Virus record (IMG/VR): IMGVR_UViG_3300025121_000014
Coordinates: 96,001 to 160,000 of that record
Length of the DNA: 64,000 nucleotides
Reading direction: 5' to 3' (one strand)
DNA from: a virus
Taxonomy: Duplodnaviria > Caudoviricetes
The notes under the pieces were generated by a model, which ran no database searches, was not told the origin of the DNA, and saw only the letters and a program-made list of their open reading frames with translations. The number at the start of each line of letters is the position of its first letter. Within the stretch, counting starts at the first letter, position 1. This document shows positions 24,137-61,276 of this stretch, piece after piece. Made by a program: the position numbers and the translations under genes.

Positions 24137-24177
24137 AAATTCTTTTAAGTTTTTTTGAGTTTTCTTTGACGATTAAT
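24137..24177 (-). mobile_element. Degenerate IS200/IS605-type left-end remnant
   Basis: Minus strand TTTAT|ATTAATCG-TCAAAGAAAAC, with the same 8-nt spacing as the intact left ends. Confidence 0.5.
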
Positions 24178-24230
24178 ATAAAAATTAAATTATTTTTAAT
24201 TAATATATAATTAAAAATAATTTAATTAAG

Positions 24231-34517: not shown

Positions 34518-34943
34518 ATGGAACACGACAAAAAACTAAAAAATTTCATTAAAACTAATATTAAAGATTTTTTGAATGAACAAGTTGTGATGAAAAAACC
34601 TATCATAATTAAATCAAAAAAGAATGATTTGATGTATATTAAAATTAGCTTTGATGAAAAAGGTAGAGTTGATAAAATTGAGAATAAATGGGATGTTAAA
34701 ATACCCGAATATTATGGTTTTGATATTAATGAAATTGAAATAAATAATTGGATTAGAAGAAAAGAACCAGATTTATACATTGAAAAAGAAATAAACGAAA
34801 ATACATATAAAATAGCGTTTGATGATGAAATTAAATATGAACTTAAACGTTATTTACAGAATACAATATGGAATAAAGTTGGTGGAATTGACGAAAGAGC
34901 TGATAAACTAATGGAATTACATAATGAACTACACATCAAATAA
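34518..34943 (+). CDS. Hypothetical protein with its 3' end interrupted by mini-IS A
   Basis: C-terminal residues ELHIK* are read from the element's right end. Confidence 0.6.
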   Translation: MEHDKKLKNFIKTNIKDFLNEQVVMKKPIIIKSKKNDLMYIKISFDEKGRVDKIENKWDVKIPEYYGFDINEIEINNWIRRKEPDLYIEKEINENTYKIAFDDEIKYELKRYLQNTIWNKVGGIDERADKLMELHNELHIK

Positions 34944-35185
34944 ATATTAATGTGTTTCAACGTTTCATAGACTTGACTATTGTCAACGCCTCACCGTCTT
35001 TTTGTTTATACTACGAAATCAGTCCCTGACCCACAGTTTAAAAATATTTTTAAACATTTTTAATGACACTTAACTTGGTTTTCGTTAAATGTTTGACTAT
35101 CAAGTATTTACATACTTGAACCTCAATGATTTTACTTGATCTAGGTTTGTAGATCAAAACCATTAAATCATTTCAAAGAACTTTT
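34905..35185 (-). ncRNA. Putative omega-like RNA from mini-IS A plus flanking guide (boundaries approximate)
   Basis: Three 8-bp hairpins, then a TnpB-3'-like scaffold (GGTCAGGGACTGA..AAACAAAAA..GAGGCGTTG..AGTCTATGAA) and the right end; promoter motif at 35198-35207. Confidence 0.55.
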
Positions 35186-35276
35186 ATTTAATTATTATAT
35201 ATATTAAATAATGAAAGCCAAAAAAGTCAAATTCATCACATAACTAAAGGTTTATGTGTTTTCTTTGATGGCTCAT
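34924..35276 (-). mobile_element. Mini-IS A: ORF-less IS200/IS605-type element (353 bp)
   Basis: TTTAT precedes the left-end hairpin ATGAGCCATCAAAGAAAACACATAAACCTTTAGTTATGTGATGAATTTGAC; right end GAAACACATT..GATGTGTAGTTCAT. Confidence 0.85.
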
Positions 35277-38794: not shown

Positions 38795-39062
38795 AATTAA
38801 AACAAAGTTAGATAATGAACTACCATTAATTTAAAAATTTAATGGTTTCTTTGTATATTTATTTACAAAAACTCCGTAGAGGCTCGTCCATTGAAGCAAA
38901 AGTAGATGTTTTTTAAAAACATATTTAAACTACAAAAAACTTGTTCGTCAAACAAGTTATCTGGTTGAAACTGAACCAGTTCAGTAATATGACGAAAACT
39001 ACTTTATTGATTTTACATCACTTAAGATTTAAAGTGATAACCAAATATATCAAAGAACTTTT
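38795..39062 (-). ncRNA. Putative structured omega-like RNA from mini-IS B (boundaries approximate)
   Basis: Hairpins ATCACTT/AAGTGAT, ACTGAA/TTCAGT, AACTTGTT/AACAAGTT, TTTGTA/TACAAA; promoter motif at 39075-39084. Confidence 0.5.
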
Positions 39063-39155
39063 ATTTAATTATTATATATATTAAATAATTAAAGACTGTT
39101 TTTGTCAAATTCATCCTTTAAACTAAAGATTTAACGGTTTTCTTTGACTGGTCAT
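38815..39155 (-). mobile_element. Mini-IS B: ORF-less IS200/IS605-type element (341 bp)
   Basis: TTTAT|ATGACCAGTCAAAGAAAACCGTTAAATCTTTAGTTTAAAGGATGAATTTGAC left end; right end GAAACCATTAA..TTAATGGTAGTTCAT. Confidence 0.85.
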
Positions 39156-39177
39156 ATAAAAAAAAATAAAAATAAAA

Positions 39178-40405: not shown

Positions 40406-40480
40406 GGCCTCATAGTTCTAATTGTGCAGAATAGCGGGTTCTAACCCCGAAGGTTGTAGGTTCGAATCCTACTGAGGTCA
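40406..40480 (+). tRNA. tRNA with anticodon CUA (putative amber suppressor); CCA not encoded
   Basis: Acceptor GGCCTCA/TGAGGTC, D stem GTTC/GAAT, anticodon arm GCGGG-TTCTAAC-CCCGA, variable AGGTT, T arm GTAGG-TTCGAAT-CCTAC. Confidence 0.8.
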
Positions 40481-50682: not shown

Positions 50683-51207
50683 ATGAAGTTAACAGATAAG
50701 CAAATAAAGGAAACATATATAAATGTATTAACTAGTACAAAAGTTAATGATATAATTAAGAAAAATAGCCAGGGACTTAAACTTGCGCTAAATGAACATA
50801 TATGGTTTGAAAAACAATTTGGTGTGAGAAAAGCAAATCTTAATTTTGCTATGACAACAGGTGAAATAGATGAATATGCCAAATGTAAAATGGATGTTCA
50901 TTACTTTGCAAATAAATATTGCCACATTAAAAGAGAAGACGGTACAATTGGACCAATGCAACTAAGAGATTACCAGAGAGATATTATAGATTTATATGTT
51001 AATAATAGATATTCTATATTAATGACTAGTAGACAATTAGGTAAGTGCAACTCCTTGGTAACCAGATTGTTAGTAAAATTTGACAATGGTGATGAATATG
51101 AAATTACTATGGGAGAATTATATTATACTTACATTCAACAAGAAAGAAAACTAACAATCATAGAAAAAATTAAACTTTTTCTATATAAAGCACTATCTAA
51201 ACTATAA
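50683..51207 (+). CDS. terL: Terminase large subunit N-fragment plus 53-aa N-intein (Cys1 at 51046)
   Basis: LRDYQ adenine motif, SRQLGK then CNSLVTRLLVKFDNG..ITMGELY. Confidence 0.85.
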   Translation: MKLTDKQIKETYINVLTSTKVNDIIKKNSQGLKLALNEHIWFEKQFGVRKANLNFAMTTGEIDEYAKCKMDVHYFANKYCHIKREDGTIGPMQLRDYQRDIIDLYVNNRYSILMTSRQLGKCNSLVTRLLVKFDNGDEYEITMGELYYTYIQQERKLTIIEKIKLFLYKALSKL

Positions 51208-52827
51208 TATTTGATTATAAATATATTTTAAATTACCAGAATTATATATTCTATAAATTTTTCTTTCTAACATAATTTGATGTTCAGTTTTGTTAACATC
51301 ATAACCTTCTTTAATTAATTTATCTTTTCTGAAATTAAATCTATGGTGTCTAATTTGGTCAATAATATAATAATAATTAGGTGATGTTTTATGTATAAAA
51401 TCAAATCCTAAAACTTCATATAATTTTCCATTAGAATGACTTCTATCTGCATATGTAGTTATATTATCAAATTTATAATTTCTAATAAAATACTTAAATA
51501 ATTTACTAGCACATCCTATTACATTTGTATTAAGTTTATTACAAAACCTTAACATTTCATATTGTCCTTCGGTTTTTGAAGATGAATTCATAGATTTTCT
51601 TAATTTTCCAAAAGTCATTAATGAAATTAATTCATTTTCATAAAATAAACCTAATTTAATTTTACTTCCTACAAAACCTTGAATATGATTTTCATCTAGA
51701 AATTTTCTAACTAATTTATTATCAATTATTTCTTTAACTTCTGTTTTTCTAGCGTATATTTTGTTTGGTGTTCTACCTAACTTATTCAATATCATTGATT
51801 TAACTATATCTTGTTTATATACCCAATCATCTTCATATATATGAATTAATTGAATATTTTTTTTATCACATAATTCAGTTTTATCTAAATGATAATTATT
51901 CGGTCTATATAATTCATTATGCCAATAAACACCATTAAATTCAAATGCTAATTTTAAATCAGGGATATAAATATCTAATTCTTTTCCATCTAATATTTTT
52001 CTATCATTTGTTATTATTAAATTATTATAATTTTCTTTTATAAAATCTAATAATTTATTTTCTTTGTCAGAACCAGGATCATTAATAGGATTACATATTG
52101 TACATAATGTAGTATTAGTTTCTAATCTATTATAAAAAATTGTTTTAGGTATTTTACTTATATGATTATTACATTGATATATATAAGTATAATCTTCATA
52201 ATCAATATCAATAATATTGTTATTTTTATATTTTTGGATTAATTTATTTTTTTTATTAATTGTTTTTTTTTCTTGGGTAGATTTTAATTTTGATATATTA
52301 TCAACACCATATAATTTTAAATTAGTTTCTCTATATTTTTCTAAATTATTATAATTTTCATCACCATATTTTTCTTTTTTAGTAACTAACGATTGTTTAT
52401 GATTATTATAATTTTCATCACCATGTTTTTCTTTTTTAGTTTTTTTAATTTTTTCAATATGTTTTGTTGTTTTTGATGGGTGAGTCGTACCATATTTATC
52501 TAAACATGTTTTTATATATTTTTTACTATTTGTATAATTTTCATCACCATATCGTTCTTTTTTAGTTTTTTTCATTTTAATATATTTACATTTATTACAA
52601 TAATATAAGCCATCATCATATGTATTATTAATATATGTTCTATACTCCATATTTTTAATATCTCCACATATATCACATTTAACATCAATTTTAATTGGAC
52701 TGCCTTTAATTAAATCTTTTATATTTATATTTATAGTATCTCCTTTTTTGGCATCATAATTTTTATTTTTATAAAATGTAATATTTCTAGTACTTATATT
52801 CATTTTTACTTGTTCAGTTATAATCAT
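51202..52827 (-). CDS. Hef/Vsr-like free-standing homing endonuclease with KYG repeats and a GNAT-like C-domain
   Basis: ELDIYIPDLKLAFEFNGVYWH, IHIYEDDW, YADRSHSNG; start moved from 52896 (inside the IS end) to MIITEQ. Confidence 0.75.
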   Translation of the reverse strand: MIITEQVKMNISTRNITFYKNKNYDAKKGDTININIKDLIKGSPIKIDVKCDICGDIKNMEYRTYINNTYDDGLYYCNKCKYIKMKKTKKERYGDENYTNSKKYIKTCLDKYGTTHPSKTTKHIEKIKKTKKEKHGDENYNNHKQSLVTKKEKYGDENYNNLEKYRETNLKLYGVDNISKLKSTQEKKTINKKNKLIQKYKNNNIIDIDYEDYTYIYQCNNHISKIPKTIFYNRLETNTTLCTICNPINDPGSDKENKLLDFIKENYNNLIITNDRKILDGKELDIYIPDLKLAFEFNGVYWHNELYRPNNYHLDKTELCDKKNIQLIHIYEDDWVYKQDIVKSMILNKLGRTPNKIYARKTEVKEIIDNKLVRKFLDENHIQGFVGSKIKLGLFYENELISLMTFGKLRKSMNSSSKTEGQYEMLRFCNKLNTNVIGCASKLFKYFIRNYKFDNITTYADRSHSNGKLYEVLGFDFIHKTSPNYYYIIDQIRHHRFNFRKDKLIKEGYDVNKTEHQIMLERKIYRIYNSGNLKYIYNQIL

Positions 52828-52884
52828 ATTATTAGTTTTTATTTTATATATAAAAAGGTCAAAGTGTAAAATATCATTATTTAT

Positions 52885-53736
52885 ATGACCCGTCAAAGAA
52901 AATCGTTAAATCTTTAGTTTAAAGGATGAATTTGACATACCAAAATTAAAATTTACTGATATAGATTTACACAGAGAATTTAAAGGTGATATAAAAACTA
53001 TAACTATTTCAAAAACAACAACAAATAAATATTATATAAGTATTTTAGTCGATAACAAAAAAGAATTGCCTGAAAAACAACCAATTAAATTAGAAACAAC
53101 CGTTGGTGTCGATTTGGGAATTAAAGATTTTGTTATCACTTCAGATGGAAAGAAATTCAAGAACCAAGATTTCTTTAAATCTGCTTTAAAGAAACTAAGA
53201 GTTGAACAGCGTTCCCTTAGTAGAAAACAAAAAGGATCAAACCATTATTTAAATCAAAAATTAAAGGTTTCATTATTTCACGAACACATTAAAAACCAAA
53301 GAGAAGATTACTTACATAAAATAACTAAATACCTTGTAGATAATTATGATACAATTTGTATAGAAAATCTTGGTGTTTCTAATATGATGAAAAACAATAA
53401 GTTAAGTCGTGCTATAAGTGATATGGGTTGGTTTAAATTTAAATCATTTCTTGAATATAAATGTGAATGGTATGGAAAGAATTTAAGTGTGATTGGTAGA
53501 TTTGATCCTTCATCAAAAACATGTTCTGTTTGTGGAAAAATAAATAAAGAATTAACATTAAAAGACAGAAACTGGAAATGTAATTACTGTGGAACAGAAC
53601 ATGATAGAGATATAAATGCTGCAATTAATATAAGAAATTTTGGGTTGAGGAACCAACCTAGCGTTACACAAAGTGAATGGTTGCATTGTGCTTGTAGCGT
53701 AGAAACACACAAATCTTCAGTTTGTGCGTAGTTCAT
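52885..53736 (+). mobile_element. IS200/IS605-type element T2 with 5'-deleted tnpB (852 bp)
   Basis: TTTAT 52880-84, left-end hairpin, right end GAAACACACAAATCTTCAGTTTGTGCGTAGTTCAT. Confidence 0.88.
52937..53731 (+). pseudogene. tnpB: N-terminally truncated TnpB
   Basis: Frame IPKLKF..KYYISILV..GVDLG..IENL..CSVC..CNYC..DRDINAAINI begins right after the left end, with no HTH. Confidence 0.85.
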
Positions 53737-56026: not shown

Positions 56027-56104
56027 TGTAGTTCATTAAACAAAAAATATCTATTTTTTCATTTTTGAAAAACTTATAATTATTTTCGAAATATAAGGTA
56101 TAAT

Positions 56105-56156
56105 TGAAATAAATCCACCTAAATTAAAGATTTACTGGTTTTCTTTCAAAAAATTT
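56105..56156 (-). mobile_element. Degenerate IS left-end remnant
   Basis: TTTAT|AAATTTTT-TGAAAGAAAACCAGTAAATCTTTAATTTAGGTGG; adjacent 56045-56070 resembles the T1 leader. Confidence 0.5.
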
Positions 56157-56175
56157 ATAAATAAATTTAAAAAAA

Positions 56176-56958
56176 ATGGGAGAAATTAAATATAAAATTA
56201 CAAGTGATAATTTAACAAAAATAATAGATACAGTCAGAGATTTAAGCGTAATAGATAAAAAAGGTGTTATACGATTTAATAAAAAATATGTACTTATTTA
56301 TTCCTTAATAGGAGAAGGTGATGTTATAAATGTGTTTAAAAGTTTTGTATTTAAAACAGAAGAACTTTTTACAAATATAGATGAATTTGATGAAACAATA
56401 AATTTTGTCGTAAAGGATATGAAGAATCTTTATAGAACACTTAAAATAATGGCAGATTTAGGTGATAATGTAGACGGAAAAATATTTTTTGATGAAATAG
56501 GTAAACTATTTTTTTCAGATCGTTTATATTTTAAATCTACTAATAAATTAAAATTGAATTTTTATGGTAATGATCCTACTAAAACAAATACAAGAATAAC
56601 ATTAGATCAAATTAAAAAAATTGCTAATGTAGATAATTCGTCTTTTAATTTTAATTTAAAAAGTGAAGATTTTGTCAATATTAAAAAATTAGCATTACCA
56701 GATGATGAAATGGATATTTTTTATATGAATACATTTGAAAAAGATGGTGATTATTTTGTATCTATTGGGGAAACTAATTGGAACTTAACATTAGATCAAA
56801 TAGATCTAAAAGAAGAAAGAACACTAGCATTTCCAAAAAAGTATTTTAAAACTATTAATATAGATAAAGAAAATGTAAAAGTATATGTATTTGATACGTT
56901 TTTATTAGTATCTTCTGATAATTCTAATTTAATCATATCAATAGAAATAACTGTTTAA
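56176..56958 (+). CDS. Possible DNA polymerase sliding clamp (gp45-like)
   Basis: Size and two-part beta-rich pattern, in a replication/packaging context; no diagnostic motif. Confidence 0.35.
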   Translation: MGEIKYKITSDNLTKIIDTVRDLSVIDKKGVIRFNKKYVLIYSLIGEGDVINVFKSFVFKTEELFTNIDEFDETINFVVKDMKNLYRTLKIMADLGDNVDGKIFFDEIGKLFFSDRLYFKSTNKLKLNFYGNDPTKTNTRITLDQIKKIANVDNSSFNFNLKSEDFVNIKKLALPDDEMDIFYMNTFEKDGDYFVSIGETNWNLTLDQIDLKEERTLAFPKKYFKTINIDKENVKVYVFDTFLLVSSDNSNLIISIEITV

Positions 56959-59659: not shown

Positions 59660-61276
59660 TTATTTTAAATTCTTTAAATATTTAAATTTTAAATTACCAG
59701 AATTATAAATTCTATAAATTTTTCTTTCTAACATAATTTGATGTTCTGATTTATTAGCATCATAACCTTCTTTAATTAAAACATCTTTTCTAAATCCAAA
59801 CCTGTGATATCTAATACCATCAACGACATAATAATAATTTGGTTTAGATGTATGTGAATATATGAATCCTAAATATTCATATAATTTTCCAGTTGAATGG
59901 CTTCTATCTGCATACGTAGTTATTTCTTTAAATTCATAATTTCTTATAAAATATTTAAATAATTTTGAAGCACCACCTATTACATTAGTATTTAATTTAT
60001 TACAAAATCTTAACATTTCGAACTGCTTTTCTTTTGAAACTGAATTCATCATTTTTCTTAATCCACCAAAAGTCATTAAACTAACTAATTCATCTTTATA
60101 AAATAATCCTATTTTAATAGATGATCCCATAAATCCTTGAATATGATTTTCAGCCAAAAAGTTTCTGACTAATTTATTATCTGTTATTTCTTTTACTTCT
60201 GTTTTTCTTGCATATATTTTATTTGATGTTTTACCTAACTTATTTAAAATCATTGATTTAACTATATCTTGTTTATAAATCCAATCATCTTCATAAATGT
60301 GTATTAATTGAATTTTTTTTTCATCACATAAATCAGATTTTATTTTATGATAATCGTTTGATTTATATAATTCATTATGCCAATAAACTCCATTAAATTC
60401 AAATGCTAATTTTAAATCAGGTAAATAAATATCTAATTCATAAGGATTTATTATATTCCTATCATTTGTAATAATTTCTTCTTTATAGTTTTCTTTTATA
60501 AAATCTGATATTTTTATTTCAGAATCAGATTTAAAATTGAAACCTATTGAATTACACTTAGTACATAACGTAGAATTTAAAATTAATCGATTTTTTAATA
60601 ATCCTTTATTTATTTTAAAAATTTGGTTACAATTATTACATTTAATAAAATAATCCGGATTATTATAATTTATAACTATAATATTATATTTATCTTTATA
60701 GTATTTGATGGAATTTTTATTTTTAATATTTTGTATTTTTTTATATAATTCTTGTTGTATTTCTTTAGATTTTAATCTATATTCAACTCCATATTTTTCT
60801 AAATTTGTTATTTTAATTTTATCCCATACTTCTTCTGTTTCTAAACCATATTTCTTTCCGTATTTACTTAAATTAGTATTTTGAAGTTTTTTAATTATTG
60901 TATTTGAATGCATAGGGTGATCAACACCATATTTTTTTAATAATGTATTTTTAGATTTTTCTTTTATTTTATCTAATTGAAAAATATTTTCAACATTATA
61001 TTTATCATTTAATCTTCTAATACATTTATCATTAGAACATTTTTTAGAGCAACAATATTCTTCTGTTAAATTATTAGTATTTTTGATATATTGGAAATAT
61101 TTTAATTTTTTTTCTAATCCACATATATCACATTTTACTTTAATTTCAACATGACTATTTTTTGATAAATCTGTTGGTTTTACCAATGAATATTTTAATA
61201 AAACATCATACCCTAATTGTTCATAATGTTTTTTTAATTTTCTATTATTAATTTTTACTTCTTTTGTAATAATCAT
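59660..61276 (-). CDS. Second Hef/Vsr-like homing endonuclease
   Basis: ELDIYLPDLKLAFEFNGVYWH; C-terminal half highly similar to 51202-52827. Confidence 0.75.
   Translation of the reverse strand: MIITKEVKINNRKLKKHYEQLGYDVLLKYSLVKPTDLSKNSHVEIKVKCDICGLEKKLKYFQYIKNTNNLTEEYCCSKKCSNDKCIRRLNDKYNVENIFQLDKIKEKSKNTLLKKYGVDHPMHSNTIIKKLQNTNLSKYGKKYGLETEEVWDKIKITNLEKYGVEYRLKSKEIQQELYKKIQNIKNKNSIKYYKDKYNIIVINYNNPDYFIKCNNCNQIFKINKGLLKNRLILNSTLCTKCNSIGFNFKSDSEIKISDFIKENYKEEIITNDRNIINPYELDIYLPDLKLAFEFNGVYWHNELYKSNDYHKIKSDLCDEKKIQLIHIYEDDWIYKQDIVKSMILNKLGKTSNKIYARKTEVKEITDNKLVRNFLAENHIQGFMGSSIKIGLFYKDELVSLMTFGGLRKMMNSVSKEKQFEMLRFCNKLNTNVIGGASKLFKYFIRNYEFKEITTYADRSHSTGKLYEYLGFIYSHTSKPNYYYVVDGIRYHRFGFRKDVLIKEGYDANKSEHQIMLERKIYRIYNSGNLKFKYLKNLK

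Follow-up and report, generated by a model that had tools for sequence, protein, structure and literature searches.

The locus at 38815-39155 raises a simple question: is a 341-bp IS200/IS605-type element with no ORF of its own the debris of a larger transposon, or does it belong to a selected family of small elements built around a structured RNA? The element, mini-IS B, lies on the minus strand of a 64,000-nt stretch of phage DNA (the window) that is low in GC (~24%) and carries a terminase. The longest ORF within it encodes 47 aa and runs on the opposite strand, leaving no protein gene between the ends. Public runs containing the mini-IS B stretch number 15, all of them DNA from groundwater metagenomes. 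The preliminary description of this locus had favoured a selected family of non-coding RNA elements over random deletion products, and we analyzed the ends, the interior and the relatives of mini-IS B with this proposal in mind.

Read along the minus strand, mini-IS B follows a TTTAT motif and opens with an 8-nt start, a foot (TCAAAGAAAA), a hairpin, GATGAATTTGAC and an AT-rich block, which leads into the front module, the 5′ part of the predicted RNA (Table 1). Hairpins H2 to H4, the motif TTTGCTTCAATGGACGAGCC, two more hairpins, GAAAC, the right-end hairpin and GTAGTTCAT follow in that order, and the hairpin scaffold occupies ~200-230 nt between the promoter-like block and the right end. Subterminal hairpins are present at both ends, without terminal inverted repeats, and in mini-IS B, as in its ORF-less sister, mini-IS A, the stem of the left hairpin is similar to that of the right. 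On this anatomy, three other identities for mini-IS B were rejected: an IStron, an inverted-repeat MITE and a gene for a small protein.

Table 1. Features of mini-IS B and its sister elements in the window.
Feature	Position	Strand	Basis
Target/transposon-adjacent motif TTTAT	39156..39160	-	Directly 5′ of left end at 39155
Left end: 8-nt start, foot TCAAAGAAAA, subterminal hairpin 39115-39137, GATGAATTTGAC	39104..39155	-	Identity to T1/T2
Promoter-like block AAAAACAG..TTTAATATATA	39050..39103	-	40 nt (39050-89) identical in mini-IS A
Mini-specific front module: UGGUU, hairpin H1 (39017-38), GUAAAAUCAAUAAAGU	39001..39043	-	Common to all mini types
Hairpin H2: CTGGTT / loop CAGUUUC / AACCAG	38961..38979	-	Covariation in L006, L038, L056
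Hairpin H3: AACTTGTT/AACAAGTT	38938..38958	-	Six pairs invariant in 5 homologues
Hairpin H4: GTAG..ATGTTT/AAACAT..CTAC	38902..38933	-	Covariation
Scaffold 3′ part: motif TTTGCTTCAATGGACGAGCC, H6 (38872-81), H7 (38849-71)	38849..38900	-	L037 tnpB 3′ end homology
Right end: GAAAC, subterminal hairpin 38823-45, terminal GTAGTTCAT	38815..38849	-	Pattern in 35/35 right ends
Putative 16-nt guide flank TATCTAACTTTGTTTT	38799..38814	-	Assigned from position alone
mini-IS A, ORF-less sister, different 3′ scaffold, 353 bp	34924..35276	-	Alignment with mini-IS B
T1, tnpB-only element, TnpB 424 aa	46510..47969	-	Pfam HTH_OrfB, OrfB_IS605, Cas12f TNB
T2, tnpB element with 5′ internal deletion (left end joined to mid-tnpB)	52885..53736	+	tblastn

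By its ends and target motif, mini-IS B is a member of the same family as the tnpB elements T1 and T2, which have both of its ends. The left end had been described as nearly identical to those of T1 and T2, and indeed it shows 92% identity to T1 over 72 nt and 96% identity to T2 over 53 nt; its 28-nt core occurs three times in the window (in mini-IS B, T1 and T2; 0.00 expected), while GTAGTTCAT occurs six times (0.54 expected). The motif TTTAT(A) abuts 25 of 25 left ends from the window copies and metagenome loci, and the arrangement GAAAC, hairpin, GTAGTTCAT is found in all 35 right ends collected. The flanks beyond these right ends are all different and do not repeat the motif, pointing to insertion without target duplication. 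The target motif of ISDra2 is TTGAT, as opposed to TTTAT here. Among relatives, the end-hairpin loop TCTTTAG is kept at both ends and the stems covary. The terminus of mini-IS B (GGTAGTTCAT at 38815-38824) and the adjoining flank also read as previously described, the flank being a putative guide by virtue of its position.

Comparison with mini-IS A bears out the rest of the described architecture. The two elements, of 341 and 353 bp as reported, have a common left end and the same promoter/leader block, followed by a hairpin of different sequence and GTAAAATCA, in keeping with the proposed shared layout of the first hairpin; beyond this point they diverge. The TnpB of T1 appears to be intact and matches ISDra2 TnpB structures (E 2e-64) in an alignment that brings the RuvC and zinc-finger motifs into register. 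A tblastn search with T1 residues 123-395 identified T2 (42% identity), an internal deletion product that lacks the front module of the minis. The tnpB genes of the window belong to the T1 and T2 clades only, i.e. to other clades than the one that matches the scaffold of mini-IS B (see below).

Further traces of the family are scattered through the window. A left-end and promoter remnant of the L022 type lies at 56037-56156 (minus strand), with TTTAT at 56157-56161, 20 nt before a start codon at 56176. Next to it, GTAGTTCAT occurs at 56028-56036 (plus strand), the right-end terminal motif in the opposite orientation, directly after the terminase stop codon. At 24143-24187, a match of ~45 nt to the left-end foot (TTTAT, 8 nt, then TCAAAGAAAAC) has neither hairpin nor right end and is probably the stub of another insertion.

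Searches with degenerate patterns for the two ends yielded 19 metagenome loci (left end) and 26 viral loci (right end). The elements recovered fall into two size classes, one of ~1.3-1.46 kb with a TnpB of 369-425 aa, the other ORF-less and 341-436 nt long. In the full-length class, tnpB extends to the right-end hairpin, which encodes a conserved C-terminus, ETTTSLV. ORF-less elements of equal layout recur in many phage contigs and have scaffolds of four types (A-D). The last 137 nt of type D (L008, L013) are 76-81% identical to T1-clade elements, and a TnpB coding relic is still detectable over the last ~220 nt (tblastn E 1.5e-9). This indicates that the minis are the 3′ ends of tnpB, where omega-RNAs are encoded. 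Type C (L005) matches the L032 clade and type A is similar to the L015 right end; a coding relic was detected in types C and D only, with no such signal in type B, the type of mini-IS B.

Type B is itself present at multiple sites. Full copies were found in L006 (74% identity), L038 (70%) and L056 (74%), and partial copies in L016 (3′ two-thirds), L002 (5′ third) and L047-49 (3′ stub). These copies carry six different right-end flanks; since the flank differs in every homologue, they must occupy different insertion sites. Exact interior patterns of mini-IS B had no match in viral contigs, and a degenerate interior motif search returned L038 and L047-49. In the phage GenBank collection the sole match was partial (43 nt). 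Among bacterial and archaeal genomes the left-end pattern had no matches and the right-end pattern matched two tiny MAG contigs only, identifying no host or autonomous partner. Rfam, group I intron and IS605-orfB motifs included, returned no family at gathering score within mini-IS B (best match E 0.23, far below threshold); the sole Rfam match passing in the window is a tRNA gene at 40406-40480 (55.6 bits).

Where does the type B interior come from? Its 3′ part derives from the 3′ end of a tnpB gene. The motif TTTGCTTCAATGGACGAGCC recurs in the L037 tnpB, within its 3′ coding end; L037 is a full-length element in which ATTGCTTCTATGAACGAGCCTCT is followed by two hairpins, GAAAC and the right end. 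A type B covariance model also picks out L037 (70 bits, E 5e-16); here the last ~105 nt align with confidence, the sequence upstream of them with uncertainty. On the strength of this match, at least the 3′ third of the type B cargo can be assigned to the scaffold of a different TnpB lineage. The different structured cargo noted in the preliminary description is therefore real in that it diverges from that of mini-IS A, but it is not an unrelated RNA; judging from these alignments, it is most likely the predicted omega-RNA scaffold of a second TnpB lineage. With respect to 3′ position, a hallmark by which omega-RNAs are judged, the scaffold of mini-IS B ends at the right-end boundary and has homology to a tnpB 3′ end. 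L037 and the type B mini L056 reside in one 118-kb phage record (G001). It should be noted that the sole L037-type tnpB seen is frameshifted: at L037:1497-2822 (minus strand) it is split into frames of 276 and 142 aa that overlap near an A-run, which may reflect a pseudogene, an assembly error or a slippage site.

The structure of this scaffold is conserved. The covariance model was built on four type B copies and eight sequences were aligned to it. In this alignment, which is fitted to the model and has 5-8 rows, 93.3% of cells are paired, compared to 37-44% with slid partners, the sequences being few. Among the homologues, 22 of the 54 base pairs have changed on both sides, again for a small set of sequences in a model-fitted alignment, and none of 500 shuffles reached the observed values. 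Most compensatory changes fall in H1, H2, H7 and both end hairpins. The helices are thus maintained through compensatory changes in copies that lie at other sites.

The individual helices differ in the kind of evidence they provide. Two mutually exclusive pairings had been pointed out in the cargo, ACTGAA/TTCAGT (38970-85) and CTGGTT/AACCAG. Both can be drawn and they overlap, but only the second is conserved: H2 exists as four different stems (in a comparison that takes in L006, L038 and L056) around a conserved loop, CAGUUUY, which favours CTGGTT/AACCAG over its rival, and the latter is not kept in L006. The AACTTGTT/AACAAGTT stem is present as described (H3); having invariant pairs, it counts as conserved, without covariation evidence. 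H4 has double changes in 3 of its 10 pairs, with 95-97% of cells paired. In addition, AUGGAC (AUGRAC across homologues) can pair over a long range with the terminal GUUCAU, an interaction that is invariant and 100% paired. The fold of mini-IS B is more stable than that of shuffled sequences, to an equal degree on the minus strand (z -3.25) and on the other (z -3.68), and G-U and A-C cells number 10 and 7, respectively, in the type B alignment, counts that do not decide the strand.

The front module sets the minis apart from their full-length relatives. In all four mini types it consists of UGGUU, a hairpin of 6-9 bp and then GGUAAAAUCA(A/U)(U/A)AAAG, with at least 7 different H1 stem sequences across the types; UGGUU can pair with AAUCA. 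The module is absent from all 10 full-length elements examined. The AT-rich block that precedes it has a counterpart in full-length elements, where the motif AAAAACAGAC..TTTAATATATAC also lies upstream of tnpB, and on this ground we read the block as the putative promoter of mini-IS B. A sigma-70 promoter and terminator scan gave no minus-strand promoter and no terminator, with match counts not above those of shuffles, and enrichment of the promoter motifs TTAATATATAWA and TATATATAAT in the window was not above chance.

Several observations bear on mobility. L010 (8640 nt), otherwise unrelated to the window, opens with a copy of the T2 3′ end (98% identity) and closes with one of mini-IS A (98.5% identity). 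Both ends of this contig thus lie within copies of the IS family (a T2-type 3′ end and a mini-IS A left end), which suggests that these elements are multicopy assembly breakpoints in the L010 sample. L018 likewise has no relation to the window beyond its terminal left end, which is 96-100% identical to the left end of mini-IS B and adjoins a different gene, and public assembly unitigs break precisely at 38815. An empty-site allele (joint 38814/39156) was not found in public contigs; the sole sequence skipping the element, one side of which measures 22 nt, cannot be relied upon. Relatives of the downstream gene (40-46% protein identity) have spacers of 2-15 nt, different upstream genes and no such insert, a synteny that hints weakly at an insertion at the mini-IS B site.

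No Y1_Tnp match was found among 40 window ORFs of 95-230 aa, nor was a Y1 TnpA found in two records of related phages, both of which encode TnpB and one of which is 92% complete. Pfam matches among the small ORFs of the window (40 searched) include Tad3 (Thoeris inhibitor, E 4e-23), T5orf172/MUG113 nuclease-like domains, a C-5 DNA methylase and T4 gp30.3. The window also holds two paralogous genes (51202-52896 and 59660-61276, minus strand; 81-84% identity over ~650 nt) with DUF7487 matches, the former with a weak Mom-family match as well, and tandem coding repeats of 81 and 87 nt at 1073-2494, in its first large ORF.

We consider it probable that mini-IS B is a non-autonomous, protein-free, PATE-like derivative of the IS200/IS605-type TnpB elements spread through this huge groundwater phage and its relatives, with a predicted stand-alone omega-RNA, used in trans, as its payload. 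In the scheme that we propose, transcription would proceed from the internal block towards the right end, i.e. on the minus strand, and yield a stand-alone omega-RNA whose last 16 or so nt would be flanking sequence. TnpB made elsewhere, from the same or a co-infecting genome, would bind this RNA, and the complex would cut the same locus (TTTAT, then the flank) wherever the element is missing. Repair by recombination with an occupied copy would then restore or spread mini-IS B, while moves to new TTTAT sites would require a Y1 TnpA acting in trans.

Three other readings of the locus deserve to be weighed against this one. Mini-IS B could be an inert decay product, in which an internal deletion of a tnpB element left the ends in place and the interior has been drifting without function. 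Decay is frequent in the family, as illustrated by the internal deletion in T2, the left-end-only remnants at about 56037-56156 and 24143-24187, the truncated minis in L003 and L012 and the 3′ stubs in L047-49, and the window contains no cognate TnpB. We nevertheless find this explanation unlikely, because copies that are just 70-74% identical and lie at different sites keep eight helices via double changes, because one front module, absent from the full-length parents, is kept across four scaffold types, and because mini sizes cluster at 341-436 nt. Variable deletion endpoints and a lack of covariation were specifically looked for, and the opposite was found. The earlier preference for a selected family over random deletion products is thus upheld, by the recurrence of four ORF-less types, by the double changes at 22 of 54 pairs and by the fact that T2 has no front module.

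Alternatively, the conserved hairpins could work in single-stranded DNA, as structures that TnpA requires to excise and insert the element, and not as RNA. The strand symmetry of the structure signal fits this idea, as do the likeness of the left and right hairpin stems within both A and B and the role of end hairpins as DNA signals in the IS200/IS605 family, established for IS608 and ISDra2. However, full-length elements with the same ends have coding sequence in place of H1-H4, meaning that H1-H4 are not needed for movement, and TnpA is not detectable in the window or in the two related phage records; we judge this reading very improbable. We would likewise give hardly any chance to a regulatory insert co-opted by the phage, whether it worked through RNA antisense to the upstream gene or by placing terminator-like hairpins, together with a signal that faces outward, just ahead of the downstream gene. 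The left ends of mini-IS A, mini-IS B and the 56156 remnant do lie 10-22 nt before plus-strand start codons, T-rich runs after both end hairpins on the plus strand (38823-38860 and 39115-39150) give these a terminator-like look, and a TTGACT-18-AAAAAT match faces the downstream gene. Against this, the same type of element occurs in many unrelated contexts, the promoter and terminator matches are weak and none is above shuffles, and distant relatives of the downstream gene do with a 2-15-nt spacer and no insert.

Returning to the omega-RNA interpretation, a wider reading can be entertained tentatively, although we think it has the odds against it: the minis might be mobile guide-RNA genes that stand alone and make up a lineage restricted to phages. 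Recombination would have placed one dedicated expression/5′ stem module in front of the scaffolds of several TnpB clades, and the guides of a phage would outnumber its nucleases and act in trans, cutting and converting co-infecting relatives or excluding them. If true, such a lineage would be a natural intermediate between one-gene-one-guide transposons and systems in which, as in CRISPR, guide and nuclease are separate. Should the RNA be produced and put to use, a single phage nuclease gene could serve several separately mobile guide genes, which would bear on the persistence of TnpB elements without a transposase and on the guide/nuclease split towards CRISPR-Cas12. In addition, the front module and the several compact scaffolds offer natural variants for testing the RNA requirements of TnpB. 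If, on the other hand, the RNA is unused, mini-IS B would be a case of well-preserved transposon decay in huge phages.

Elements of this general kind are already known. In Geobacillus stearothermophilus, ORF-less PATE-like IS605 elements "often encode" omega-RNAs that need TnpB in trans (Meers et al. 2023, PMC10055086), and PATEs are also known from Haloquadratum (PMC3119063). Like the PATE-like elements, mini-IS B has no protein gene and has ends in common with tnpB elements. It differs from PATEs in residing in huge-phage genomes and in its front module (UGGUU-hairpin-GGUAAAAUCA), absent from full-length elements, together with a promoter-like block. Moreover, the phage minis have one module joined to at least four scaffold types that match different tnpB clades, and no TnpA was found in the window or the two related phage records. 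We found no description of the phage setting, of the mini-specific front module, or of its combination with scaffolds of several TnpB clades.

The other systems to which mini-IS B can be compared each share a part of its organization. IStrons (a group I intron plus IS605/IS607; PMC10690162) similarly have a structured RNA between IS605-type ends, with an omega-RNA at the 3′ end. Mini-IS B, by comparison, has no group I intron signal in Rfam, and as it is intergenic and antisense to genes, splicing is not relevant. The ISDra2 TnpB with its omega/reRNA (PDB 8H1J, 8EXA) is the protein matched by T1 (E 2e-64), and the layout is ISDra2-like, with the predicted guide RNA lying 3′ in the element, a putative guide in the flank beyond the right end and a pentanucleotide motif adjoining the left end. 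In T1 the tnpB stop codon is 2 nt before the right-end terminus, placing the whole scaffold within the coding sequence, whereas mini-IS B, unlike ISDra2, is a scaffold without a gene. Lastly, TnpA-independent homing between plasmids or co-infecting phages is discussed in a 2026 review (PMC13565253), and the free-standing homing endonuclease genes of T-even phages, or 'transposon non-restorative homing' (PMC13565253), resemble the outcome proposed here, in that a co-infecting genome without the insert is cut and the insert is copied by repair. Unlike in T-even homing, recognition in our proposal would depend on an RNA guide that is supplied by an element of its own without protein genes, the nuclease gene lying elsewhere.
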